Shown: positions 6,034-60,086 of the stretch, piece by piece | Position numbering within the stretch: position 1 is the stretch's first letter | How the letters are laid out: each line of letters starts with the position of its first letter | Notes under the pieces: model-generated | What the model saw: only the letters and a program-made list of their open reading frames with translations | Database searches by the model: none | What the model was told of the DNA's origin: nothing | NCBI GenBank assembly: GCA_949841045.1 | Contig: CATKXS010000005.1 | Location: 650-64,649, forward strand | DNA from: an uncultured Clostridia bacterium | GTDB taxonomy: Bacteria > Bacillota > Clostridia > Christensenellales > UBA1242 | Direction: 5' to 3' | DNA: 64,000 nucleotides | Translations under genes and position numbers: made by a program

Positions 6034-6720
6034 ATGTTTTTGACAATAAAAAAGAAGGCGATATTAGGCGTTTTATTATGTATTTTGTGCGCGGGCGGGG
6101 TGTGCGGAACATTTTTTGCGGTTAAGGCTAGCGCAACACCTAAGTTTACACATACCATTGTGATTGACGTTGGACATGGTGGAAGAGATGGTGGTGCGGT
6201 CGGCGTTTCGACGGGTATAACTGAAAGCGAACTTAATCTTACTTATGCAAAACAGCTTAAAAAACTTTGCAATGAGTTTGGTATTAAAGCGGTGCTGACG
6301 CGTGAAAATATGGACGGACTTTATGACCCGAACGCCACAAATAAAAAGAAGAGCGAAATGCAAAAACGCGAAAAGATTATCAATGGAAGCAGGGCAGAAC
6401 TTATGGTCAGTATCCACATGAATTCTTTTCCGACTTCTTCATGTTCTGGCGCGCAAATCTTTTATGCAAAAGGTAGCGAAAGCGGATTTGACCTTGCAAA
6501 AAGCGTACAACTATCCGTTTGCAAGTCTTTTGATAGTGCAAGAGATTATGTGACTGTTGGCGACTATTATGTGTTAAATTGTGCTAAAATTCCTGCAATT
6601 CTTATTGAATGTGGCTTTTTATCAAACCCAACTGAAGAAAAACTTTTGACAAGCGAAAAATATTGTGAAAGTTTTTGTTATTCGGTTTTGGCCGGTATAA
6701 TTTCATTTTTTCAGATGTAA
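6034..6720 (+). CDS. cwlD: N-acetylmuramoyl-L-alanine amidase, CwlD-like (germination-specific)
   Basis: N-terminal TM/signal segment followed by Amidase_3 motifs VIDVGHGGRDGGA, SIHMNSF and ECGFLSNPTEE. Confidence 0.75.
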   Translation: MFLTIKKKAILGVLLCILCAGGVCGTFFAVKASATPKFTHTIVIDVGHGGRDGGAVGVSTGITESELNLTYAKQLKKLCNEFGIKAVLTRENMDGLYDPNATNKKKSEMQKREKIINGSRAELMVSIHMNSFPTSSCSGAQIFYAKGSESGFDLAKSVQLSVCKSFDSARDYVTVGDYYVLNCAKIPAILIECGFLSNPTEEKLLTSEKYCESFCYSVLAGIISFFQM

Positions 6721-8008: not shown

Positions 8009-8021
8009 GTGCCTAAGGCAC
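8009..8021 (+). repeat. singleton TAA-loop palindrome GTGCCTAAGGCAC
   Basis: Perfect 13-nt palindrome identical to copies at 55014 and (reverse complement) 39889, followed by TTTT. Confidence 0.7.
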
Positions 8022-17665: not shown

Positions 17666-17671
17666 ACTTAA

Positions 17672-17924
17672 TTTACATCAAAAACAGTTTAAAACTGGAA
17701 CGTAAAATATTTAGTGTTTTGGGTAAAATTAACGATAAAAACAGTTTAAAACTGGAACGAAAAAAAATGGTGATTAAAATAAAGTTTACGATAAAAACAG
17801 TTTAAAACTGGAACGTAAAAGATTTAGTGTTTTGAATAAAAATTAACGATAAAAACAGCTTAAAGCTGGAACGAAAAAAATTGGTGATTAAAATAAAGTT
17901 TACGATAAAAACAGCTTAAAGCTG
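17672..17924 (+). repeat. tandem array of 5 hairpin units (about 57-bp period; two copies of a ~114-bp double unit)
   Basis: Palindromes at 17685-97, 17742-54 and 17798-810 are CAGTTTAAAACTG. Those at 17856-68 and 17912-24 are CAGCTTAAAGCTG. Conserved flanks are ACGATAAAAA and GGAACG(T/A)AAA. Confidence 0.9.
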
Positions 17925-17954
17925 TTGACTAAGAGGATAAGTTTAGTTTAAAAT
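17925..17954 (+). promoter_or_regulatory. Sigma-A type promoter abutting the last repeat unit
   Basis: TTGACT 17925-30, 18-nt spacer, TAAAAT 17949-54. AAGGAGGG RBS lies before ATG 17974. Confidence 0.5.
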
Positions 17955-30368: not shown

Positions 30369-31316
30369 ATGTTAAATTTCTTTCTTGTTTTTTTAGTTGG
30401 ACTTGCCTCAGCACTTATTTTTGGCAAACCAATACTGATGCTTTGTAAGAAACTTCATTTGTCTCAAACTATTCTTCATTATGTGGACAAGCATGCGGGA
30501 AAAAGTGGAACGCCGACAATGGGTGGGCTTATCTTTATTTTTGCCTCCATATTTGCTTCCGCTTTCTTTTTGAAAGGCGATGTGCTATTTTCAATATTAA
30601 TTCTACTCACTATGCTTGGCTATGGGCTACTCGGTTTTCTTGATGACTTTATTAAAATCAAATGGCACAAAAACGAGGGGCTTAAGCCTTATCAAAAAAT
30701 TATAGGGCAACTTGGACTTGCTCTCATTATTGCCGTTTTCACATACTTTAAAGTTGGAAGTGATATAGACCTTTTTGGACTAAAGCTCAATCTTAGCTTT
30801 TTTATCATTCCATTTGTTGTGATTTTTTATGTGGCTGTAACCAATTCTGTTAATTTAACAGATGGGCTTGACGGGCTTGCTTCAAGCGTGAGTTTTGTCT
30901 TTCTTTTGGCGTTTAGCGGTATTTGTATTATTCTTGGTGAATACAACTTTACTATAATTTCGCTCGCAATGGCGGGGGCTTTACTTGGATTTTTATTTTA
31001 CAACGGATTCCCAGCTAAAATCTTCATGGGCGATACTGGCTCGCTCGCGTTAGGGGGACTGCTTGCCTCTCTTTGCGTTTTTACCAAGCTTGAACTAGTA
31101 ATGCTCATCATTGGAATTATGTTTGTGCTTTCTGCTGTAAGCGACATTTTGCAAGTTGCTTATTACAAAAAAACGCACAAGCGTATATTTCTTATGGCTC
31201 CTCTTCACCACCATTTTGAGAAAAAGGGAGTTCATGAAAATAGAATTGTTATTTCTTATTCAATTGTGACCTTGATTTGTGGAATCGCTGTACTGCTTGG
31301 TTACATGGTGCTTTAA
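30369..31316 (+). CDS. mraY: phospho-N-acetylmuramoyl-pentapeptide transferase
   Basis: GTPTMGG, NLTDGLDGLA, MGDTGSLALGG and PLHHHFE. ATG 30369 follows AGAGG. Confidence 0.95.
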   Translation: MLNFFLVFLVGLASALIFGKPILMLCKKLHLSQTILHYVDKHAGKSGTPTMGGLIFIFASIFASAFFLKGDVLFSILILLTMLGYGLLGFLDDFIKIKWHKNEGLKPYQKIIGQLGLALIIAVFTYFKVGSDIDLFGLKLNLSFFIIPFVVIFYVAVTNSVNLTDGLDGLASSVSFVFLLAFSGICIILGEYNFTIISLAMAGALLGFLFYNGFPAKIFMGDTGSLALGGLLASLCVFTKLELVMLIIGIMFVLSAVSDILQVAYYKKTHKRIFLMAPLHHHFEKKGVHENRIVISYSIVTLICGIAVLLGYMVL

Positions 31317-31401
31317 GCACGCGGATTATCCGCCTACTATCATTAAGAGTATTTGAATTCTTCAATTTATTACGTTCCGTGTCTTAAGCACGCGAATTAT
31401 C
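31315..31401 (-). repeat. two long-form hairpin units (minus orientation) in the mraY-murD spacer
   Basis: GCGGATTATCCGC (31321-33). Direct repeat AAGCACGCG(G)A(A)TTATC at 31315 and 31386. TATTACGTTCC (31369-79) is the reverse complement of GGAACGTAATA. Confidence 0.6.
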
Positions 31402-31495
31402 TTTTTTTTGATTATTTCAAAAGTTAAATTAGATTATATTAATCATATTGTAACAAAAAGAGCAGTATATTACATTGTATATTTGCGAGGAAGAT

Positions 31496-34080: not shown

Positions 34081-34812
34081 ATGAATAACGAAAAAATGAT
34101 TAAAAAGTTAGATAAATATGCGTACAAAACTGATAAAGGTGGAGAATGGCATGTGTCACATTTGTCATTAGTTTTAAGTGGAATTAGCACCCATTTTTCT
34201 AAGTTAGTTAAAATTGATAAAATGAATGAAAAGTCATACACTGATATTCAAACTGCTTATTATTCAATAAAAAAACTTGAAGAATACGTTTATACAATTT
34301 TTGGAGAAGCAGCACCAGACTTTATAAAATTTGCAAAGCGAAAAGGTGAATTTATAAAAGAAGTTTTAGAGCAAGCACATGCTATTGTAAAAAGAATATC
34401 TCCAGATAAGGCGATTGAGATTGAACTCGCATCTCGCCTTTTAGAGCAAATGAAAATAGAACAAGGGCAGATTAAGTTTGATTATGATAGACTAGAAAAG
34501 GTTATTATTACAAATGACAAGAAGAGTGTAATGTTCGAGGCTGATGATTATCTAGTTGTTTCTCACAAAACAAAAGCCGAGAAATTAAAAAATCAAATAG
34601 TTGAAATTTCTGTATCTGATGAATTAAAGCCAGAATTAGATTCGATTAAAAATGAGGCTTCAAAATTGTATAAAGAAATTTCAAGTGCGATAAAAGAATG
34701 TTATACTACTCTTCAAGAGGTTGAAAAGCACTCAAATAGCCATTTAATTAGAGGTGATGTATACAAAAAAGTTTATAATGATGAAAAAGAATATGAAAAC
34801 GAAGCTGAATAA
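34081..34812 (+). CDS. hypothetical coiled-coil-rich protein inserted in the dcw cluster
   Basis: 243-aa ORF with GAGGAGGG RBS and its own promoter and terminator. No family recognised. Confidence 0.6.
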   Translation: MNNEKMIKKLDKYAYKTDKGGEWHVSHLSLVLSGISTHFSKLVKIDKMNEKSYTDIQTAYYSIKKLEEYVYTIFGEAAPDFIKFAKRKGEFIKEVLEQAHAIVKRISPDKAIEIELASRLLEQMKIEQGQIKFDYDRLEKVIITNDKKSVMFEADDYLVVSHKTKAEKLKNQIVEISVSDELKPELDSIKNEASKLYKEISSAIKECYTTLQEVEKHSNSHLIRGDVYKKVYNDEKEYENEAE

Positions 34813-34823
34813 GTTTTATATAA

Positions 34824-34849
34824 GAAACTGCAAATTTTGCAGTTTTTTT
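34824..34849 (+). terminator. Rho-independent terminator
   Basis: aaactgca / tgcagttt stem followed by T7. Confidence 0.7.
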
Positions 34850-34892
34850 GTTTATTAAATTGTCGATGGATTTTGTAAGAAATAAAATATAA

Positions 34893-34905
34893 GGGCATAA
34901 TGCCC
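34893..34905 (+). repeat. singleton palindrome GGGCATAATGCCC
   Basis: Perfect 13-nt palindrome with an A-rich 5' flank. Related copies at 37133, 41897 and 60044. Confidence 0.8.
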
Positions 34906-34938
34906 TCACATTTTGGGAAAGAAATCATATATAAAGAT

Positions 34939-36210
34939 ATGGAAGGATTTTTTATTGTAGGTGGCAACAAATTAAAGGGCGAAGTAAGAATGGACTCAGC
35001 AAAGAACTCGCTTCTTCCTATTATCGCTTGTTGCATTTTAATTGAAGATGAAGTGGAGCTTGTTAATGTTCCTAAATATAGTGACGTCTTGACGATGTGT
35101 GAAATACTGTGTCATCTTGGAGGTAAGGCGGAGTTTAAGGGTGACAATCTTTATATAGATTGTCGGGGAATTGACAAAAACTGTATTCCGAACGAATTGT
35201 CATCTTCAGTTCGTTCCTCTATTTTTACGCTTGGCCCTATACTTGGTCGAATGAAGAGTGCAAAGGTTGCCTATCCTGGCGGTTGTGACATAGGATTGCG
35301 TCCTATTGACCTTCATCTTAAAGGTATCAGGGAACTTGGGGCAAAGGTTGTAGAAAAGAATGGTTACATATATGCAAATGGCGGAAATTTGACTGCCGGC
35401 GAGATTGTTTTGACTTTTCCTAGCGTGGGTGCGACAGAAAACCTTATGATGCTTGCGCTTTCAATTCCAGGACAGACAAGAATATATGGCGGGGCGCAAG
35501 AGCCAGAGATTGGAGATTTGCAGAGGTTTATAAATGCCTGTGGTGGAAGTGTAAGTGGTGGCAGGGGCAACTTTATTGTTGTTGACGGCGGACGCAAACT
35601 TCATGGCGCTTCTTTTGAAGCAATGCCTGATAGAATTGAAACGGGCACATATATAATAGCCACCGCAATGTGTGGTGGTGAAGTGGCCCTTAAGAATGCC
35701 AGTCTTGAGACAAATGGAGCTTTGGCAATGAAAATGCTAAAAACCTCTTGCAAAATAGAGCAGAAAGGTGATACAATAATCGTGCAAAGCAGTGGACGGC
35801 CAGAAAGCTTTGGCGAAATCGAGACGGCGGTATATCCCGGATTCCCAACCGACCTTCAAGCGCAAATGACAGCACTTGCAGGTGTAAGCGAAGGATATAG
35901 CCTTATCATTGAAAACCTGTTTGAAGCGCGAAGTAAGCATGTAGGTGAGCTTATGAAAATGGGTTATGATATTAGGGCTAAAAATGGAATTACAATCGTT
36001 AAAGGCCGAGATAGAATTTTTGGCGCCGATGTGACTTCGCCAGACCTTCGAGGAGGAGCGGCACTCGTGCTTGCTGGGCTATGTGCAGAAGGCTATACCA
36101 CAATAGACAATATAAAACTTGTGGATAGAGGCTATTATAAAATGGAGGAAAAACTTAGGGCGCTTGGCGGTGATATTAAGAGACTTGAAATAGAAAAGAG
36201 GCGTTGCTAA
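34939..36210 (+). CDS. murA: UDP-N-acetylglucosamine 1-carboxyvinyltransferase
   Basis: MEGFFIVGGNKLKGEV..SAKNS, active-site region PGGCDIGLRPIDLH. Start set at ATG 34939; the track's 34900 start lies in the palindrome. Confidence 0.9.
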   Translation: MEGFFIVGGNKLKGEVRMDSAKNSLLPIIACCILIEDEVELVNVPKYSDVLTMCEILCHLGGKAEFKGDNLYIDCRGIDKNCIPNELSSSVRSSIFTLGPILGRMKSAKVAYPGGCDIGLRPIDLHLKGIRELGAKVVEKNGYIYANGGNLTAGEIVLTFPSVGATENLMMLALSIPGQTRIYGGAQEPEIGDLQRFINACGGSVSGGRGNFIVVDGGRKLHGASFEAMPDRIETGTYIIATAMCGGEVALKNASLETNGALAMKMLKTSCKIEQKGDTIIVQSSGRPESFGEIETAVYPGFPTDLQAQMTALAGVSEGYSLIIENLFEARSKHVGELMKMGYDIRAKNGITIVKGRDRIFGADVTSPDLRGGAALVLAGLCAEGYTTIDNIKLVDRGYYKMEEKLRALGGDIKRLEIEKRRC

Positions 36211-36222
36211 GAAAGAGGTGTT

Positions 36223-37098
36223 ATGAAAAAGAAAGGGTGGCTAATTGTACTTGGTGTAACTGTTGCAATAGTAGTACTATTTGTAATCCTTTCTTTTACC
36301 CTTTTTTCGCTTAAGCATATAGAAATTGACTATAGGACAAGCACTCAAAATATTGAAATGACTGACGAAGAGATTATCGAAAGTGGGAATTTTAAGAAGG
36401 GTGGTTCAGTATTCTTTCATGGCAAAAAGAACTATATAAATAATATTGAAGAGGCAAATCCATACATTAAGGTTATAAATATTGAAACAGTGTTCCCTTC
36501 AAAGTTTGTTGTTCATATTGCAGAAAGACAGGAAGTTTATGCAGTTGAAAGTAGCTTTGGTTATTACATCTGTGACGAAGAAATGAAAGTTTTAAGAATT
36601 CAAGAAGAGGCGGATGAAAGCCTGCCAATCTTACTTCAAAATAAGGAAGTTGTCGCAAAAGAATATGAGGTTGGCGACAAAATCGAGATGGCGCATAAAG
36701 TAAACATTTATTCAGCCTTTTATGAAAATAATAGACCTCTTGGAGAGCAAGTTGCGCTAATCGAAAAGATTGAACTTTTTGAGGAATATGACAAGGTGTT
36801 AAAGAAAGATATTCGCATTTCAAAATTGACTTTACAAAATGGTCTTGTATTTAAGATTGTTGACGATAGTTATGGGCTGAAGTACAAAGTAAAAATGCTT
36901 ATAGATGTTTTTAGTCAATATCACAATTTTGTTGGGAAAGAAATCACTGTTCGAGATGAAGAAGGAAAGGAAACAAAGGTTATATTGACTGAAGAAAATT
37001 TGAAAAGTGCAACATTTGTTATTGCAAGTTACTATGACAAAACTTCGCATAGCGAGAGTGAATGCTACTTTGATATTGTGCTTTCAGCTGTGGCTTAG
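36223..37098 (+). CDS. ftsQ: cell division protein FtsQ/DivIB
   Basis: Single N-terminal TM, POTRA-like region and a position between murA and ftsA. Confidence 0.7.
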   Translation: MKKKGWLIVLGVTVAIVVLFVILSFTLFSLKHIEIDYRTSTQNIEMTDEEIIESGNFKKGGSVFFHGKKNYINNIEEANPYIKVINIETVFPSKFVVHIAERQEVYAVESSFGYYICDEEMKVLRIQEEADESLPILLQNKEVVAKEYEVGDKIEMAHKVNIYSAFYENNRPLGEQVALIEKIELFEEYDKVLKKDIRISKLTLQNGLVFKIVDDSYGLKYKVKMLIDVFSQYHNFVGKEITVRDEEGKETKVILTEENLKSATFVIASYYDKTSHSESECYFDIVLSAVA

Positions 37099-37132
37099 GT
37101 GGCTTGATTATGCAAATAGATTAAGAAAAAGA

Positions 37133-37145
37133 AGGGCATAATGCC
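37133..37145 (+). repeat. singleton palindrome GGGCATAATGCCC
   Basis: Identical to the copy at 34893. Confidence 0.8.
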
Positions 37146-37157
37146 CTTGAAATAATT

Positions 37158-37183
37158 AAAAAGTGGATTATCCACTTTTTTTA
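37158..37183 (+). terminator. hairpin GTGGATTATCCAC followed by T7 (terminator-like family member)
   Basis: aagtgga-tta-tccactt stem-loop followed by T7, downstream of ftsQ. Confidence 0.6.
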
Positions 37184-37194
37184 TTTAATAAACA

Positions 37195-37223
37195 TTGACA
37201 AAATTCGAGTGTTATATTACAAT
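37195..37223 (+). promoter_or_regulatory. Sigma-A type promoter of ftsA
   Basis: TTGACA, 17-nt spacer, TACAAT. Confidence 0.6.
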
Positions 37224-37264
37224 ATATTTAGTTAATTTTGTATTTTATTAAAGGAATATGTTGT

Positions 37265-38374
37265 ATGAAAGATGATTTTGTGCTTGCTTTTGACGTTGGT
37301 TCGTCTAAGCTCCGAGCCGTTGTTGCGGGCAGAGGAATAAATGATACTTTTAAGGTCAAAAGTTACAAAGAAATAGAATATGATGGTTTTTATGAAGGTA
37401 AATTTCTTTATCCTGACAAGCTTCCTTCCTTATTTGAAGATATGGTAGCAGACCTTGACAGTCAAAGTGAAAAAATTGACAAAGTTTATATTGGCGTGCC
37501 TGCCGAGTTTTCTTCTGTTTCTGTAATTGAGGAGAGTGTAAACTTTGGCAATCGCAGAAAGGTTAAAAGAACAGACCTTGATTCTCTATATTACCTTGCC
37601 GGCGAGAAGGCGAAGAGCGGTGAAGTTGAGGTTGTGTCAGTAAGCCCTCTTTCATTCTCTATTGATGGATTTCCTTCTCTCGACCCTGTTGGCGAAAGTG
37701 GGACAACCTTATCAGCAAAACTTTCTGTAATTTATGCTAATCGTGATTTTATTGAATTATTCAATTCTATTGCTGGCGGACTGAACTTCTCAACTGTTGA
37801 ATATATATCTGAAGCACTCAGCGAGGCTCAATATATTATTCCTCGTGAAAAGAGAGAGGATATGGCACTTCTTGTTGATGGCGGAGACCTTACAACAAGC
37901 ATCGCTCTTATTAAAGGAGACGGACTCAGCGCGCTGACATCAGTCTCACGTGGTGGCGGATTTATTACAAATGATTTAACTGAGGCGTTTGACCTCTCTA
38001 TGAGCGAGGCTGACAGACTTAAGAAACAAATCGTGCTTTCAGTTAAGGGCGGACAAAACGACTGCTATGAACTTATGACTGACTTTGGTAAGACAACAAG
38101 AATTTCTCTTAACTTCGCAAACGAGGTTGTGTCTTACAGAATAGAAGAACTTGCAGAAGTTATATCAAAATGTATTCAGCTCAGTGCTTCTCAATTTGAG
38201 AGTTATCTTCCAATTTATCTGACGGGTGGCGGAATATCTAAGATAAAGGGTGGTCGTGATTTCCTTGCAAAATGTCTTGGCAGAAATGTAACTTACGGCA
38301 CTCCATCACTTCCAGGAAAAGAAAAACCTGAACTTGCTTCCATCTACTCGCTCATAAACAGTGCATTGAATTAA
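37265..38374 (+). CDS. ftsA: cell division protein FtsA
   Basis: Actin-fold motifs FDVGSSKLRAV and LVDGGDLTTSIA; sits upstream of ftsZ. Start set at ATG 37265. Confidence 0.85.
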   Translation: MKDDFVLAFDVGSSKLRAVVAGRGINDTFKVKSYKEIEYDGFYEGKFLYPDKLPSLFEDMVADLDSQSEKIDKVYIGVPAEFSSVSVIEESVNFGNRRKVKRTDLDSLYYLAGEKAKSGEVEVVSVSPLSFSIDGFPSLDPVGESGTTLSAKLSVIYANRDFIELFNSIAGGLNFSTVEYISEALSEAQYIIPREKREDMALLVDGGDLTTSIALIKGDGLSALTSVSRGGGFITNDLTEAFDLSMSEADRLKKQIVLSVKGGQNDCYELMTDFGKTTRISLNFANEVVSYRIEELAEVISKCIQLSASQFESYLPIYLTGGGISKIKGGRDFLAKCLGRNVTYGTPSLPGKEKPELASIYSLINSALN

Positions 38375-38589
38375 AATGTAAAAACAAAATTTATTAAAAA
38401 ATTTTCAAAAATCGTTTGGAAAATTGTGACATTATGGTTATAATGCATATTGCATAAATATTCATAAATTATGCATATTCCACGTATTTTATACATTTTA
38501 TAAAAAATTTATAAAAACGTATTGCATTTTTATTTAAAAAGTATTACAATAATGAATATTGAAATATTCAAAAATTCAAGGAGAAAAAA

Positions 38590-39810
38590 ATGGAAAACAA
38601 TTACAACACTTCAGCAACCAAAATTAAGGTAATCGGTGTAGGCGGTGGCGGAAATAACGCGGTTAATCGTATGATTGACGCTGGCGTTAATGTTGCTGAA
38701 TTTATTGCAGTCAATACTGACCAGCAAACACTTCTTCTCAGTAAAGCTGAGACAAGACTTCAAATCGGTGAAAGATTGACAGGTGGTCGTGGCGCGGGTG
38801 CAAAGCCTGAAATCGGACAAAAGGCTGCAGAAGAAAGCAAAACTTCACTTACTGAAATGCTTAAGGACGCAAACCTTGTATTTATTACTGCCGGAATGGG
38901 TGGTGGTACTGGTACTGGTGCGGCTCCTGTTATTGCTCAGATTGCAAAGGAACTTGGTATTTTGACAATCGCTGTCATTACTAAACCTTTCTCTTTTGAA
39001 GGACCTGTTAGACAAAAGAATGCTGACGAGGGCCTTGAAAAACTTAGAAAATATGTTGACGCTCTCGTAGTTATTCCAAATGAGAGATTGCTTGAAATTC
39101 TTCCAAAGAAAACCCCTCTCATCGAATCATTTAGATTTGCTGATGATGTTCTTAGACAAGGTGTTCAAGGTATTTCTGACCTCATTGTTTTCCCTGGTCT
39201 TATCAACCTTGACTTTGCTGACGTTTGTACAATTATGAGAGACAAAGGCCTTGCTCACATGGGTATTGGTTATGGTACTGGTGACAACAAAGCTCTTGAA
39301 GCTGTTAAACAAGCTGTTGCAAGCCCACTTCTTGAGACAACAATTGAAGGCGCAACTGGAATCCTTATCAATGTTAAAGGTGGTGGGGATTTGACTCAAG
39401 ATGATATTAGTGAAGCAACAGCTCTTGTAAGAGAAGTTGTTGATGACGATTGCAATATTATCTTTGGTACAAGCATGGACGACAATATGCGTGATGAAGT
39501 TGAAATCACACTTATTGCAACTGGCTTCCAAAGCATAAATGACAAAGCAAAAGAAGAGGAAGAGAGAAGAGCAAATGAAATGGCTCAAGCTCGTTCTATT
39601 GGAAATATGGGACAAACTCGCCCTGAATATTCTGCAAGAAGCATGTTTGCAAGTTATGTTCAAAAAGAGAAGGAAGAGGAAGCTCAAGCTCCAGTTAGAC
39701 CAGATGTTTCTCTTGAAAGACGCAATAATGATTTAAGTTCTTCAAGAGTTGAAGTAAACAACTCAAGCGTTCCACCATGGATTGAAAAACTTAGAAGAAA
39801 TAAGAGATAA
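38590..39810 (+). CDS. ftsZ: cell division protein FtsZ
   Basis: [17 protein letters not shown] and the tubulin signature [13 protein letters not shown]. Confidence 0.97.
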
Positions 39811-39830
39811 ATAAGAAAACTGATATACAT

Positions 39831-39860
39831 AAAAGAACATACTTTTGTATGTTCTTTTTT
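39831..39860 (+). terminator. Rho-independent terminator of ftsZ
   Basis: aagaacata / tatgttctt stem followed by T6. Confidence 0.8.
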
Positions 39861-39862
39861 AT

Positions 39863-40020
39863 GTGCATTATGATTCTATTCACTTCGTGTGCCTTAGGCA
39901 CTTTTTACCACTGCGTTGCACCTTAGGTGCTTTCTATCTACTTCGTTGTGTATTATGCACTTTTTGTTTACTTCGTTGGGGTCTTAGTCAATTTTATCTA
40001 CTACGTTTGTACCTCGACTT
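39863..40020 (-). repeat. short-form hairpin array (about 30-bp period, 5-6 units)
   Basis: The plus strand reads (C/T)ACT(T/A/G)CGT(T) + palindrome + T-run. Palindromes are GTGCCTTAGGCAC 39889-901, GCACCTTAGGTGC 39918-30 and GTGTATTATGCAC 39948-60, with degenerate units at 39863, 39978 and 40008. Confidence 0.85.
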
Positions 40021-40239
40021 TTAAAATATAATTCAACTATATTGCTTTTAGGAGAATGTCAAAATTTTTGTGATTTTAACTTATCTTGTAACAATGTTTT
40101 GTATTCTATCGATTAAGAAAAATAGCGAAAAAAATAAGGTTTTTTCTTCGTTAAATTACCCGTTAACTCGACAATTATCCCTAAATTTTCAGTTTGTGGC
40201 ATGGGTGAAAGATGTTACACTTTCCATGCGAGGTGAAAA

Positions 40240-41896: not shown

Positions 41897-41908
41897 AGGG
41901 CATAATGC
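41897..41908 (+). repeat. degenerate GGGCATAATGCC palindrome
   Basis: aGAGGGCATAATGCCTCt, with the same A-rich 5' context as the other copies. Confidence 0.6.
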
Positions 41909-42241
41909 CTCTGAAAACATTCCAAAATAAGTCATGTACGTTGTTATTGTACACCCCTTACTTTGGAACATTTTCGAGCCTTGCCTTGCTTGTTTCTAGG
42001 CTGACTGTTGAAATTTTAGCAACCAAATGTTACACGGCTATCGTAAATTATATCAGATACTTAAAGTTTGTGACGTTCCTGTAAAAGTACAGAAAATGAA
42101 AAATGGCATAATTAATCGAAAAATCCGCAAAAATGGTGATAAAATGGGCAAAAACAATGATTTTTTCTAGTTTTGTCCTTTTTTTTGGGTTGTGAATAAA
42201 AAATATTAGCTTTGAGGAAGATATATTTACTAGGAGGAATT

Positions 42242-43424: not shown

Positions 43425-43441
43425 GAACTGGCTAAGCCAGT
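43425..43441. repeat. TAA-centred palindrome AACTGGCTAAGCCAGTT abutting the nrdR stop
   Basis: Perfect 7-bp arms around TAA; no T-run on the nrdR strand. Confidence 0.6.
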
Positions 43442-43884
43442 TACATGTTGTCGAGCAATTTTTTAAAGCTGTCAAGGTCTTTGAATTGGCGATAAACGGA
43501 AGCAAATCTTACGTAAGCGACCTCGTCAAGTCCTTTGAGTGCGTCCATAACCATTTCGCCAAGTTGAGATGATTTAATCTCTTGGGTGAGTTTGTTTTGA
43601 ATTTGCTTTTCGATGGTGTCAACAACATTGTCGATTTGACTCATGCTGACAGGGCGTTTTTCACAAGCCTTAATAATTCCGCCTTTAAGTTTTTCTTTGT
43701 CAAAAGATTGTCTTGAACCGTCATTTTTAATAACTAAAATAGGTGTGGTTTCGATAGTCTCGTATGTAGTAAATCTTCTTCCGCAAACAAGACATTCACG
43801 GCGTCTTCTGATTGAGTTTGACTCTTCGCTATTTCTTGAGTCAAGAACCTTGCTTTCTTCTGCGCCACAATAAATACATTTCAT
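43441..43884 (-). CDS. nrdR: transcriptional repressor NrdR
   Basis: [17 protein letters not shown]...[17 protein letters not shown] zinc ribbon plus an ATP-cone. The ATG at 43884 follows AAGGAGA. Confidence 0.93.
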
Positions 43885-44331: not shown

Positions 44332-44430
44332 TGTGGCCTAGCCACCTTTTGTTCACTTCGTGTGCATTATGCACTTTCTTATTGTTTCGTTATGCATTAT
44401 GCACTTTCTTTTTACTTCGTTTGGGGTTTG
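44323..44430 (-). repeat. short-form hairpin array (about 30-bp period, 3-4 units) between feoA and feoB
   Basis: GTGGCCTAGCCAC 44333-45, GTGCATTATGCAC 44362-74, ATGCATTATGCAC 44392-404 and a degenerate terminal unit homologous to the one at 39968-39995. Flanks are ACTTCGT(T) and a T-run. Confidence 0.85.
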
Positions 44431-48184: not shown

Positions 48185-48210
48185 TAAAAAAAGCACCTTT
48201 AAGGTGCTTT
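48185..48210 (-). terminator. Rho-independent terminator of rpmB
   Basis: agcacctt / aaggtgct palindrome with T7 on the minus strand. Confidence 0.75.
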
Positions 48211-54988: not shown

Positions 54989-55027
54989 AAAAAGTGCCTA
55001 AGACATGCAAAAAGTGCCTAAGGCACA
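54989..55027 (+). repeat. two hairpin units, A5-GTGCCTAAGACATGC-A5-GTGCCTAAGGCAC
   Basis: Read directly. The second is a perfect palindrome identical to the one at 8009. Confidence 0.7.
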
Positions 55028-55066
55028 CAAAAAGAGCAAAAATTTATGGATTTTTGCTCTTTTTTA
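55028..55066. terminator. bidirectional Rho-independent terminator
   Basis: agagcaaaaat / atttttgctct 11-bp stem with A- and T-runs, between convergent genes. Confidence 0.8.
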
Positions 55067-58214: not shown

Positions 58215-58321
58215 TTGTAAGGAGCGCTTAATATTCTTATTGTTTCCTTCCTACAAAAACCGAATTATATAGGTTGAGTTTAAAGGAATGGGGAATTTTA
58301 GATATTAAATTATAAAGGTAA

Positions 58322-58740
58322 GTGGCTAAGCCACACGACAATCGCGCAGCGTAAGGCTGGGGAACGTAAAAATATAAAAATTAAAAATGGCTTACGAAAG
58401 TCGCGCAGCGTAAGGCTGTGGGAACGTAAAAATATAAAAATTTAAAAATGACTTACGAAAGTCGCGCAGCGTAAGGCTGTGGGAACGTAATATTAACAAA
58501 ACTTTAAATACAATAGACGATAAACGTCGAACATTTGGTTCGGCGGGAACGAAATAAATTTAAAAATCAAATATAACTAACGATAATGATGCAAACTAAG
58601 TTTGCTGGAACATAATAAAACCAAAACTTTAGATATGTCTTACGATAATCGCGCAGCGTAAGGCTGCTGGAACGTAATAATATAAAAATTTAAATACTAT
58701 AGACGATATTCGTGCAACATTTGTTTGCTGGGGAGGAAAT
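58322..58740 (+). repeat. tandem array of 8 hairpin units (58-63 bp period) ending on the U32 gene RBS
   Basis: ACGA boxes at 58336, 58394, 58454, 58517, 58580, 58642 and 58703. Stems vary (CAGCgTAAgGCTG x4, CGAACaTTTgGTTCG, GCAAACTAAGTTTGC, GCAAcATTTGtTTGC, GTGGCTAAGCCAC). 3' boxes are GGAAC(G/A)(T/A)AA. Confidence 0.9.
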
Positions 58741-58741
58741 T

Positions 58742-59923
58742 ATGGAATTACTTGCACCTGCTGGTAATTTTGAAAAACTTGTTACCGCTGTCCACTTCGG
58801 GGCAGATGCGGTTTATTTTTCAGGCAAAACTCTAGGACTTCGCGCCTTTGCTGGCAATTTCAGCAATGACGAAATTAAGTCCGCTATGGAATTTTTGCAT
58901 AGCCACGCCAAAAAAGGTTATATCACTCTCAATATCGTTGCAAAAGATGTTGACTTTGTTGGTCTAGACGATTATCTTAAAGTGCTTGAAGAGGCAAAGG
59001 TGGACGGCGTTATTGTTTCAGACGTGGGTCTTATTTACTATATCCGTAAGAACTTTCCGTCAATTGATGTTCATGTGTCAACTCAGGCAAACGTAAACAA
59101 CTCTCAGTCAGCAAAATTCTATGCTGATATGGGAGTTACTAGAATTGTGCTTGCAAGAGAACTTAATCTTGAAGATATTAAAAAAATTCATGACAATGTT
59201 AAAAATGTTGAAATTGAAACCTTTGTGCATGGTGCAATGTGTATTTCCTATTCTGGAAGATGCCTGCTGTCAAACTATTTGACTGGCAGAGATAGCAATA
59301 GGGGTGCTTGCGTTCAAGCTTGTAGGTGGAAATATTATATCCGCGAAGAAAACCGCGAAGATGAATATCCTATTGAAGAGGATGAACGCGGAACATATAT
59401 TTTAAACTCAAAAGATATGTGCCTTATTGATTATGTTGACAAATTGAGAGATGCAGGAATTGCAAGCTTGAAAATTGAAGGTCGAATGAAATCAGATTAT
59501 TATGTTGCCAGCGTTGTCAATGCGTACAGACGAGCACTTGACGGCTTTGACGATTTTAATCTTCTTCATGACGAACTTGAAAAAACCAGTCACAGACGTT
59601 ATACAACAGGTTTTTACTTTAATTCTGACGACAAAGAATATTTGAACGACAGCATGCCTGTTCAAACCTATGAATTTATGGCTAAGGCTGTGGAAGATGC
59701 AAAAGAGGGCAGGGTTAAAGTTGAAATGAGAAACAAGTTTAGACTTGGTGATGAACTTGAGGTGCTATCGCCTGATGATAATTTCTTAAAGAAGATTAAA
59801 ATTGAGAGCATTATAAACTCAATAGGCGAAAATGTAGAAGAAGCGAAAAGGGTGCAAGAAATAGTGGAAATTAACTGTCCATTTGCTCTTAAAAAAGGTG
59901 ATATTTTAAGACGTGAATCTTAA
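58742..59923 (+). CDS. peptidase U32 family protein
   Basis: MELLAPAGN start typical of U32, E..VHGAMCISYSGRC motif, and a C-terminal beta-barrel domain. ATG 58742 follows GGGGAGG. Confidence 0.85.
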   Translation: MELLAPAGNFEKLVTAVHFGADAVYFSGKTLGLRAFAGNFSNDEIKSAMEFLHSHAKKGYITLNIVAKDVDFVGLDDYLKVLEEAKVDGVIVSDVGLIYYIRKNFPSIDVHVSTQANVNNSQSAKFYADMGVTRIVLARELNLEDIKKIHDNVKNVEIETFVHGAMCISYSGRCLLSNYLTGRDSNRGACVQACRWKYYIREENREDEYPIEEDERGTYILNSKDMCLIDYVDKLRDAGIASLKIEGRMKSDYYVASVVNAYRRALDGFDDFNLLHDELEKTSHRRYTTGFYFNSDDKEYLNDSMPVQTYEFMAKAVEDAKEGRVKVEMRNKFRLGDELEVLSPDDNFLKKIKIESIINSIGENVEEAKRVQEIVEINCPFALKKGDILRRES

Positions 59924-60043
59924 GACGGAGTATATTTACATTTTATAAAAAATAGTAAGCAGAGATAATCTGCTCTTGCTCGTTTAGTGGCAAGTTTTGG
60001 TTGTGAAAGATTTAAGAAAATGTTCTGATTTATTTTTAAAACA

Positions 60044-60056
60044 GGGCGTAATGCCC
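60044..60056 (+). repeat. singleton palindrome GGGCGTAATGCCC abutting a -35 box
   Basis: A variant of GGGCATAATGCCC; the T after it begins TTGACA. Confidence 0.75.
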
Positions 60057-60057
60057 T

Positions 60058-60086
60058 TTGACAAAGATATATAAATATGTTAAGAT
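60058..60086 (+). promoter_or_regulatory. Sigma-A type promoter of sepF (extended -10)
   Basis: TTGACA, 17-nt spacer, TGT-TAAGAT. Confidence 0.55.

Follow-up and report, generated by a model that had tools for sequence, protein, structure and literature searches.

What are the small, near-identical hairpins that stand before murA, after ftsQ, after sigE and against the -35 box of sepF in this DNA, and why do they share one strand-specific layout? The window, by which we mean the whole 64,000-nucleotide stretch that was analysed, is contig C5 of a 1.16-Mb genome (G000; 34% GC, 95% complete) whose nearest public relatives are MAGs of uncultured gut Clostridia/Eubacteriales. An earlier note on the window had read the hairpins as elements that act as RNA or single-stranded DNA. 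On balance we favour a somewhat different account: each singleton is probably a lone copy of the core module of an intergenic repeat family that is modular, non-coding, limited to one clade within a genus of uncultured gut Clostridia, and filtered by its host according to orientation.

The palindromes themselves are not in doubt. The four near-identical ones start at 34893, 37134 (37133 in the earlier note), 41898 (41897 in the earlier note, and with one mismatch) and 60044, and shuffles give a chance expectation of 0.03 matches for the motif that the four sites share, GGGCRTAATGCCC. All of the other palindromes that had been listed are present as well, at 8009-8021, 31321-31333, 37163-37175, 43426-43442 (previously placed at 43425) and 55014-55026. 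The gene names were verified by Pfam for murA, ftsA, mraY, nrdR, spoIIE, the POTRA domain of FtsQ, SpoIIGA with sigma-E, and SepF. The isolated copies are as follows.

8009 to 8021, plus strand: GTGCCTAAGGCAC, at the start of the spoIIE frame, with a 3′ T-run and without a 5′ A-run; one of the few copies that break the strand rule.
34884 to 34914, plus strand: singleton, an A-rich run and GGGCATAATGCCC (34893-34905), between the terminator of the upstream gene (34822-34848) and the murA start (34939).
37124 to 37148, plus strand: singleton, AAGAAAAAGAA and GGGCATAATGCCC (37134-37146), 36 nt past the ftsQ stop; identical in the ERR4093270 strain.
37158 to 37180, minus strand: AAAAAGTGGA-TTA-TCCACTTTTT, a bidirectional terminator with a 10-bp stem, which contains the family 13-mer GTGGATTATCCAC (37163-37175); identical in the ERR4093270 strain.
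41898 to 41910, plus strand: singleton GGGCATAATGCCT, one mismatch, after sigE; present unchanged in two other strains.
43426 to 43442, plus strand: AACTGGC-TAA-GCCAGTT, abutting the stop of nrdR (minus strand).
48190 to 48210, minus strand: AAAGCACCT-TTA-AGGTGCTTT, a hairpin with a 9-bp stem and the family loop, among the five rule-breaking copies.
54989 to 55034, plus strand: AAAAAGTGCCTAAGACAT and AAAAAGTGCCTAAGGCAC, two units of 20 nt each in a convergent spacer; includes the palindrome 55014-55026.
60044 to 60056, plus strand: singleton GGGCGTAATGCCC, one G.T pair, abutting TTGACA (60058-60063) upstream of sepF.

Such hairpins are strongly over-represented in the genome. Perfect 5-bp stems with at least three GC pairs and any 3-nt loop occur 293 times; in 136 of these (72 + 64) the loop is TAA or TTA, against about 9 in first-order Markov shuffles. 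When a 5′ A-run is required, 77 perfect copies are found where 1.0 is expected, together with 47 one-mismatch copies where about 17 are expected. The suspected excess over shuffled sequence is thus borne out, and the stems are perfect in 72% of the A-run copies (77 perfect against an excess of about 30 with one mismatch).

The strand rule, according to which the loop reads TAA when the hairpin is oriented with its A-run at the 5′ end, also holds genome-wide: a one-sided 5′ A-run accompanies a TAA centre 68 times and a TTA centre 5 times. In five other species of the genus the TAA-centred pattern outnumbers the TTA-centred one by 87 to 4. The copy at 8009 is indeed an exception, with a 3′ T-run only. 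The single TAG loop, which lies in an array at 44333 and reads GTGGC-CTA-GCCAC on the plus strand, is a strain SNP of TAA; two other strains have TTA at this site.

The density proposed earlier, more than 30 hairpins in 64 kb of mostly core genes, is roughly right only when array units with other loops are counted. The window holds 18 perfect and 18 one-mismatch copies, and about 12 of the latter look like chance matches inside genes. The link with core genes does not stand; the density instead reflects a species-specific burst of the repeat family.

Aligned copies define a directional core module of about 18-20 nt, which consists of an A-run (or an ACGATA-type tag), an arm of 5-6 bp that is usually G-N-G-S-M, a T-A-A centre and the complementary arm. 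The position weight matrix reads AAAAA-G-n-G-s-m-TAA-k-s-C-n-C, with A at 53-74% across the five 5′ positions; on the 3′ side T is at best weakly preferred at positions one and two (in singletons, 52% and 43%). Ten arm types cover most copies. G-N-G-S-M arms are found in 53% of the hairpins with a TAA or TTA loop and in 3-7% of those with other loops. Because the arm motif is tied to the loop, we are dealing with a sequence family and not with a general hairpin feature of this genome or with a shared shape only. Of the copies in the terminator sense 68% have the A-run, and of those in the other sense 76%; this similar frequency argues that the A-run belongs to the module and is not there only because termination is selected for. 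Beyond the core stem, enriched pairing extends to pair 6 and, weakly, to pair 7, but no further. Longer conserved stems were considered as a family trait and rejected, the 14-bp stem at 34893 being a local feature.

The module occurs in three settings: solo, in short-type arrays with a period of 29-30 nt and in long-type arrays with a period of 56-63 nt. The array features of the window are listed here.

17670 to 17926, plus strand: long-type array (56-nt period); TTTACGATAAAAA, a hairpin with a TAA loop, then GGAACGTAA.
31308 to 31404, minus strand: hairpin doublet GTGCTTTAAGCAC and GCGGATTATCCGC over the mraY stop, a 45-nt spacer and a second, degenerate doublet; an extra long-type unit.
39874 to 40020, minus strand: short-type array (29-nt period) after an ordinary ftsZ terminator; each unit an A-run, a TAA-loop hairpin and ACGAAGT.
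44333 to 44421, minus strand: short-type array in the feoA-feoB spacer, with a period of 30 nt; its first loop, TTA in other strains, is CTA in the window.
58322 to 58720, plus strand: long-type array with a period of 61 nt and hairpins of variable stem, flanked by tsaD and the U32 peptidase gene.

Conserved tags accompany about 38 of the 136 copies. Short-type units have the form ACGAAGTGAAC-A-run-hairpin (at 39.9 kb and 44.3 kb), and long-type units the form TTTACGATAAAAA-hairpin-GGAACGTAA, bounded by TACGATA and GGAACG (at 17.7 kb and 58.3 kb). A further 22 copies, missed by the GC filter, read TACGATAnTGATG-CAAAC-TAA-GTTTG-C...GGAACG and have the same polarity in 22 of 22 cases. Singletons are the core module without tags, and have no conserved flank past the A-run. 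In four other species (G116, G092, G132 and G094) the unit ACGAAGTGAAYAAAAA-GTGCC-TAA-GGCAC forms 29-nt arrays beside further conserved modules; in G116, for example, the module CCAACCAAATGTTTGACGG-GAGAC-TTA-GTCTC-CAT... comes after several ACGAAGTGAAYAAAAA-hairpin units in a row. The arrays are mostly head-to-tail, with few inverted neighbours (37134/37163, C8:6158/6172 and C25:9901/9915).

Two further observations concern the long-type units. A second hairpin module, CCAAGC-GTAA-GGCTTG or CGAACA-TTTG-GTTCG, is over-represented genome-wide (e.g. window 58345-58365 and C3:74262) and often follows the TAA hairpin within them. Outside the window, a 1.2-kb segment of the same genome (G000:C7:5100-5300 / 6353-6420) is flanked by inverted long-type units, TTTACGATA...GGAAC, with a 63-nt period on the left. 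The 'terminal inverted repeats' of this segment may simply be two repeat arrays.

The placement of the copies is far from even. Of the 140 convergent spacers 22 contain copies, as do 43 of the 566 co-directional and 5 of the 145 divergent ones, with coding sequence at background. Convergent spacers hold 1.7 copies per kb and divergent ones 0.17. In copies, this amounts to 44 between convergent genes, 28 in the terminator sense and 29 in the opposite sense between co-directional genes, and 5-7 in divergent spacers. A tabulation against gene direction gives no bias (29:28 in co-directional spacers), and neither does one of the singletons against the replication strand (22:19 by gene majority, 27:24 by GC skew). 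With no bias towards transcription or replication, the strand rule is an internal polarity of the module and not an alignment with a genome process.

Orientation does matter for position within a spacer. Co-directional copies in the terminator sense (stem-TTA-stem-T-run) have a median relative position of 0.15, with 10 of 28 at most 15 nt from the stop and 1 of 28 at most 60 nt from the next start. Copies in the opposite sense have a median of 0.58; by the same limits, 1 of 29 is close to the stop and 11 of 29 are close to the next start. The difference is significant for all copies (Mann-Whitney p = 2.6e-6) and for singletons (0.0016). It was not reproduced in an underpowered check in G092, where only 6 versus 6 scorable copies under crude gene calls showed no difference and the copies lie deep within long, repeat-rich spacers.

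We suggest that the strand rule is the built-in polarity of the module and that its consequences depend on how it is read. On the opposite strand it would form a short hairpin with a U-run behind it and so amount to a weak intrinsic terminator. Copies in the terminator sense would then accumulate right after stops and between convergent genes and be kept out of leaders by a host filter, and copies in the A-run sense, presumably harmless anywhere, would be tolerated in mid-spacer or near the next gene. Among predicted gene-end terminators with a hairpin and a T-run, 28 of 188 (about 15%) have a TTA loop and 5 of 188 a TAA loop. Against this reading, a 5-bp stem is weak for a terminator, and the median stability of the family terminators is -7.0 kcal/mol versus -9.5 for other predicted terminators.

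Could the hairpins simply be ordinary terminators of the host, alike because the machinery of this clade prefers G-N-G-S-M stems and a UUA loop, and independent in origin instead of copies of a repeat? The U-run on the terminator-sense strand speaks for this, as do the 44 copies between convergent genes and the 28 in the terminator sense after co-directional genes, of which 10 begin within 15 nt of the stop like other terminators here (ordinary predicted terminators in this genome start -2 to +12 nt from the stop). The pattern of an intrinsic terminator, a GC-rich hairpin with a sense U-run, fits the 28 co-directional and 44 convergent copies, but not the 29 co-directional and 5-7 divergent copies that point the wrong way, the four named singletons among them. 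Arrays of 3-6 units stand behind terminators that already exist, and between feoA and feoB, sister species are without hairpins at the same gene ends, and only 23% of the species of the genus have them at all. The non-hairpin tags ACGAAGTGAAC and TACGATA...GGAACG also travel with the hairpin. We consider this explanation unlikely.

Less likely still is that the hairpins are the binding site of a clade-specific protein for RNA or single-stranded DNA, which would recognise the UAA triloop, the G-rich stem and the A-run and control a post-transcriptional regulon that includes cell-division and sporulation genes. Polarity conserved across species would suit such a site, as would perfect stems of varied sequence, a paired change between strains and several sense-strand copies just before a ribosome-binding site or a -35 box. 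However, the copies are oriented evenly with respect to transcription (29:28), their positions are not conserved between species, and singletons lack both pairing past pair 6-7 and any further conserved flank. A search for an asymmetry between G.U and A.C mismatches, which would mark a functional RNA strand, gave 15:15, so the wobble-type mismatches have no strand preference. Nor is there a match to an Rfam family: Rfam 15 gave no gathering-score match in the window and nothing relevant at E <= 1 in 58250-58750 or 34780-40100. The earlier proposal of action as RNA or single-stranded DNA is supported in part: the polarity is real, and the dependence of position on orientation fits an effect at the RNA level, but the even ratios for transcription, replication strand and mismatch type speak against a uniform strand-specific role.

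That the 13-bp palindromes are operators of a dimeric DNA-binding regulator is highly improbable: they are perfect, odd-centred and carry a conserved G at arm positions 1 and 3, but the central base is coupled to a one-sided A-run (68:5), so that the run and the central A share one strand with a strong polarity conserved across species, which a symmetric double-stranded site does not explain, as had been argued before, and the arms vary in a compensated fashion over more than 130 sites that lie mostly at gene ends or in convergent spacers and rarely in divergent promoter regions.

Returning to the repeat family, what does it imply for the four named singletons? None is oriented as a terminator for its neighbours. 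The copy at 34893 is unchanged in a strain of 97.6% identity, its whole spacer is unchanged in a strain whose neighbouring gene differs by 2.6%, and the copy at 60044 is identical in five other samples (99.2-99.7% identity). At 34893 the minus-strand RNA is predicted to form a 14-bp stem (-17.1 kcal/mol) followed by a U-run, with the plus strand at -9.8, and this modelled hairpin could stop antisense transcription. The loop region of the same hairpin is the candidate -10 box of TTGTAA-N17-CATAAT (34873-34901), by its sequence a plausible sigma-A promoter for murA, which may be usable despite the lack of a family-wide -10 enrichment. For the family as a whole a role of the hairpin loop as a -10 box (xATAAT) was rejected, as a -35-like hexamer stands at a distance of 16-18 nt in just 3 of 60 copies, and other spacings do equally well. 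Most likely, the singletons at 34893, 37134, 41898 and 60044 are neutral passengers, tolerated near promoters or ribosome-binding sites. For annotation, this means that the hairpins are not to be taken as gene-specific regulators of murA, ftsQ, sigE and sepF.

The family is restricted to part of the genus. The strict pattern AAAGKGSMTAAKSCMC was scanned in 151 species, with 0-1 matches for a reversed-pattern control, and it matches 35 of them (34 of 150 besides G000), i.e. 23%. Of the 34, 32 fall within the half of the genus with an FtsZ identity of at least 72%. Counts are highest in G092 (30), G000 (21), G116 (16), G132 (16), G104 (13) and G094 (12). The closest species to G000 (FtsZ 92-95%) have 0-4 copies against its 21, which indicates that the expansions are independent bursts. 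A metagenome scan with FtsQ gave no relatives.

Comparison of single loci shows the copies to be additions. The syntenic spacers of sister species hold only ordinary terminators, without family hairpins. The array at the ftsZ 3′ end is missing in 16 related species, which have just a normal terminator there, and the locus of the 58322 array is a plain 200-nt AT-rich spacer in a sister species. At least 4 of the 6 copies of G002 have no counterpart at the orthologous site in G000.

Arm variants such as GTGCC, GTGGC, GTGCA, GTGGA and GGGCA are separated by compensated double changes, and the same variants are common to species whose spacers no longer align. Judged from these sequences, this recurrence points to a lasting constraint and not to pure junk. 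That the arms diversified while the centre and the polarity stayed argues for recognition of the loop on one strand, either in copying or in function. A simpler process could account for the ratio itself: as single mismatches in stem sites run at about 3%, simple decay from a polar ancestor could alone produce the 68:5 split.

Comparisons between strains show how active the family is at present. Polymorphism of the copies between strains had been suggested as a sign of mobility, but among strains of 97-99.7% identity nearly all copies are kept, including 34893, 37134/37163, 41898, 60044 and the arrays at 39.9, 44.3 and 17.7 kb. The 39874 array is kept in another strain with 4 differences, all in decayed units. 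In unit 2 of the 17670 array the arms are CAGTT/AACTG in the window and CAGCT/AGCTG in strains of about 97% identity, a paired change from T-A to C-G. No pair of filled and empty sites was found for a singleton in these comparisons, and the singleton flanks carry no repeat past the A-run.

The one gain of a unit is at the end of mraY. There, 31308-31406 spans 99 nt in the window and 45 nt in strain ERR4093271, and the difference is an extra long-type unit in the window. The unit takes the place of the last eight codons and brings a new stop, located in a hairpin loop, so that MraY ends in ...GYMVL* in the window and in ...GYMWVAGVLVP* in ERR4093271; the stop codon of either strain falls within a family hairpin. 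Taken together, the kept copies and this gain show that the spread is slow at present and that a tandem unit gain is directly seen. Repeats of this family can thus reshape gene ends, as illustrated by the mraY of one strain, which gains a new stop codon from a unit.

How might the copies move? The module would multiply as a unit, whether alone, as tandem units of 29-30 nt tagged with ACGAAGTGAAC or within units of 56-63 nt, and its copies would reach new spacers by a route that does not involve RAYT. G000 has no match to RAYT (Y1 transposase, PF01797). PF01797 is found in 17 of the 151 genomes of the genus, none of them copy-rich (G092, G116, G132, G104, G094 and G155), and its distribution does not track copy number. 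Searches for TnpB, reverse transcriptase and serine recombinase in G000 found none; serine recombinases occur in 90 of the 151 genomes with no relation to copy number. G000 has six or seven tyrosine recombinases, which look like ordinary Xer and phage/ICE integrases. Four of these are large (425-477 aa) and lie on the small contigs C21, C31, C30 and C16, two of which are of markedly low GC; two of the four are paralogues with 40% identity, and the four are probably integrative elements.

It is tempting to imagine a RAYT-independent machinery that reads one strand of the hairpin, in the form of single-stranded DNA or RNA, and spreads copies of it to new spacers; such a strand-specific step in copying seems to us a rather doubtful proposition. 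In one speculative version, the first arm would fold back and serve to rebuild the second. If true, fold-back copying would jointly explain arms that are perfect yet diverse, a loop and polarity that are invariant across species whose spacers no longer align, and independent bursts in single species.

The family has several features in common with known repeat systems. In Neisseria (DUS) and Haemophilus (USS) a short conserved sequence occurs in inverted pairs that form terminator hairpins at many gene ends; here, in contrast, the half-site is just 5-6 nt and variable in sequence. DUS and USS are also discussed in the 2011 description of SPRITE (PMC3049150), a small non-coding repeat with a hairpin and a U-rich tract that is most enriched near the 3′ ends of convergent genes. 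SPRITE is suspected of co-option as a terminator, has no known transposase and rarely shows new insertions (PMC3049150). By description our family resembles it in being terminator-like, in its enrichment at convergent 3′ ends (1.7 versus 0.17 per kb) and in having no known enzyme, and 68 copies carry the one-sided run. SPRITE differs in its 18-bp duplex, its long U-rich tract and its AAAA/TTTT at both ends, against a 5-6-bp stem, a one-sided run and tagged tandem arrays here.

The BOX element of S. pneumoniae (boxA-boxB(n)-boxC) is likewise modular, with a variable number of internal hairpins, a range limited to close relatives, no known enzyme and enrichment between convergent genes. Conserved end modules with variable internal hairpins are found here as well, in the modules of G116 and the difference in unit number at the mraY end. 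BOX has modules of 45-59 nt, terminal inverted repeats and target-site duplications, whereas the present core of about 18-20 nt is abundant as solo copies, and inverted ends and duplications were not found. Our comparison with BOX is by description, and homology to pneumococcal boxA/B/C is not expected given that the host belongs to a distant Clostridia lineage.

For palindromic repeats tagged with GTAG or CGTC, as for our family, the usual place is downstream of genes, in co-directional and convergent spacers (Di Nocera et al. 2013, PMC3733652). Most tagged REPs come from Proteobacteria, and the CGTC type is without a dedicated transposase (PMC3733652), a lack that our family shares. Like REP/BIME and REPIN-RAYT systems, our family is made up of short palindromes outside genes, each with a one-sided unpaired tag, in high copy number (136 versus about 9) and with coding sequence at background. 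It departs from them in having mostly head-to-tail arrays instead of inverted doublets and a low-GC Firmicute host. It also has neither a GTAG nor a CGTC tag (there is an A-run, and the array tags are ACGAAGT, which is TTCGT on the other strand, and TACGATA), and no RAYT in G000 or in the copy-rich species. The hairpins are accordingly a new family within a known class of bacterial small repeats (BOX/SPRITE/REP-like), and not a new regulatory system. They illustrate that bursts of tiny repeats occur even in the gene-dense genomes of about 1.1 Mb of uncultured gut Clostridia. With a strict polarity, diverse perfect stems and no RAYT, the family is a compact case for studying the spread of transposase-less REP-like elements.

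Some minor observations may be of use to others who work on these genomes. Short-read contigs from other samples (L036-L038, L046 and L024) break off or begin in or next to hairpins and arrays of the family, at window positions 17758, 41894 and 58708; as several foreign contigs end at them, family repeats evidently fragment short-read assemblies. The ftsQ stop (window 37085-37120) lies within GTGGCTTAGGTGGC, which resembles a decayed copy in the terminator sense, and all four strain differences in 718 aligned bases (window 36953-37670) cluster at 37085-37120. Finally, a hairpin after the U32 peptidase gene (window 59959-59975), GCAGA-GATAA-TCTGC, is like the family arm GCAGA/TCTGC, but has a 5-nt loop, and one strain SNP (59974) lies just 3′ of it.
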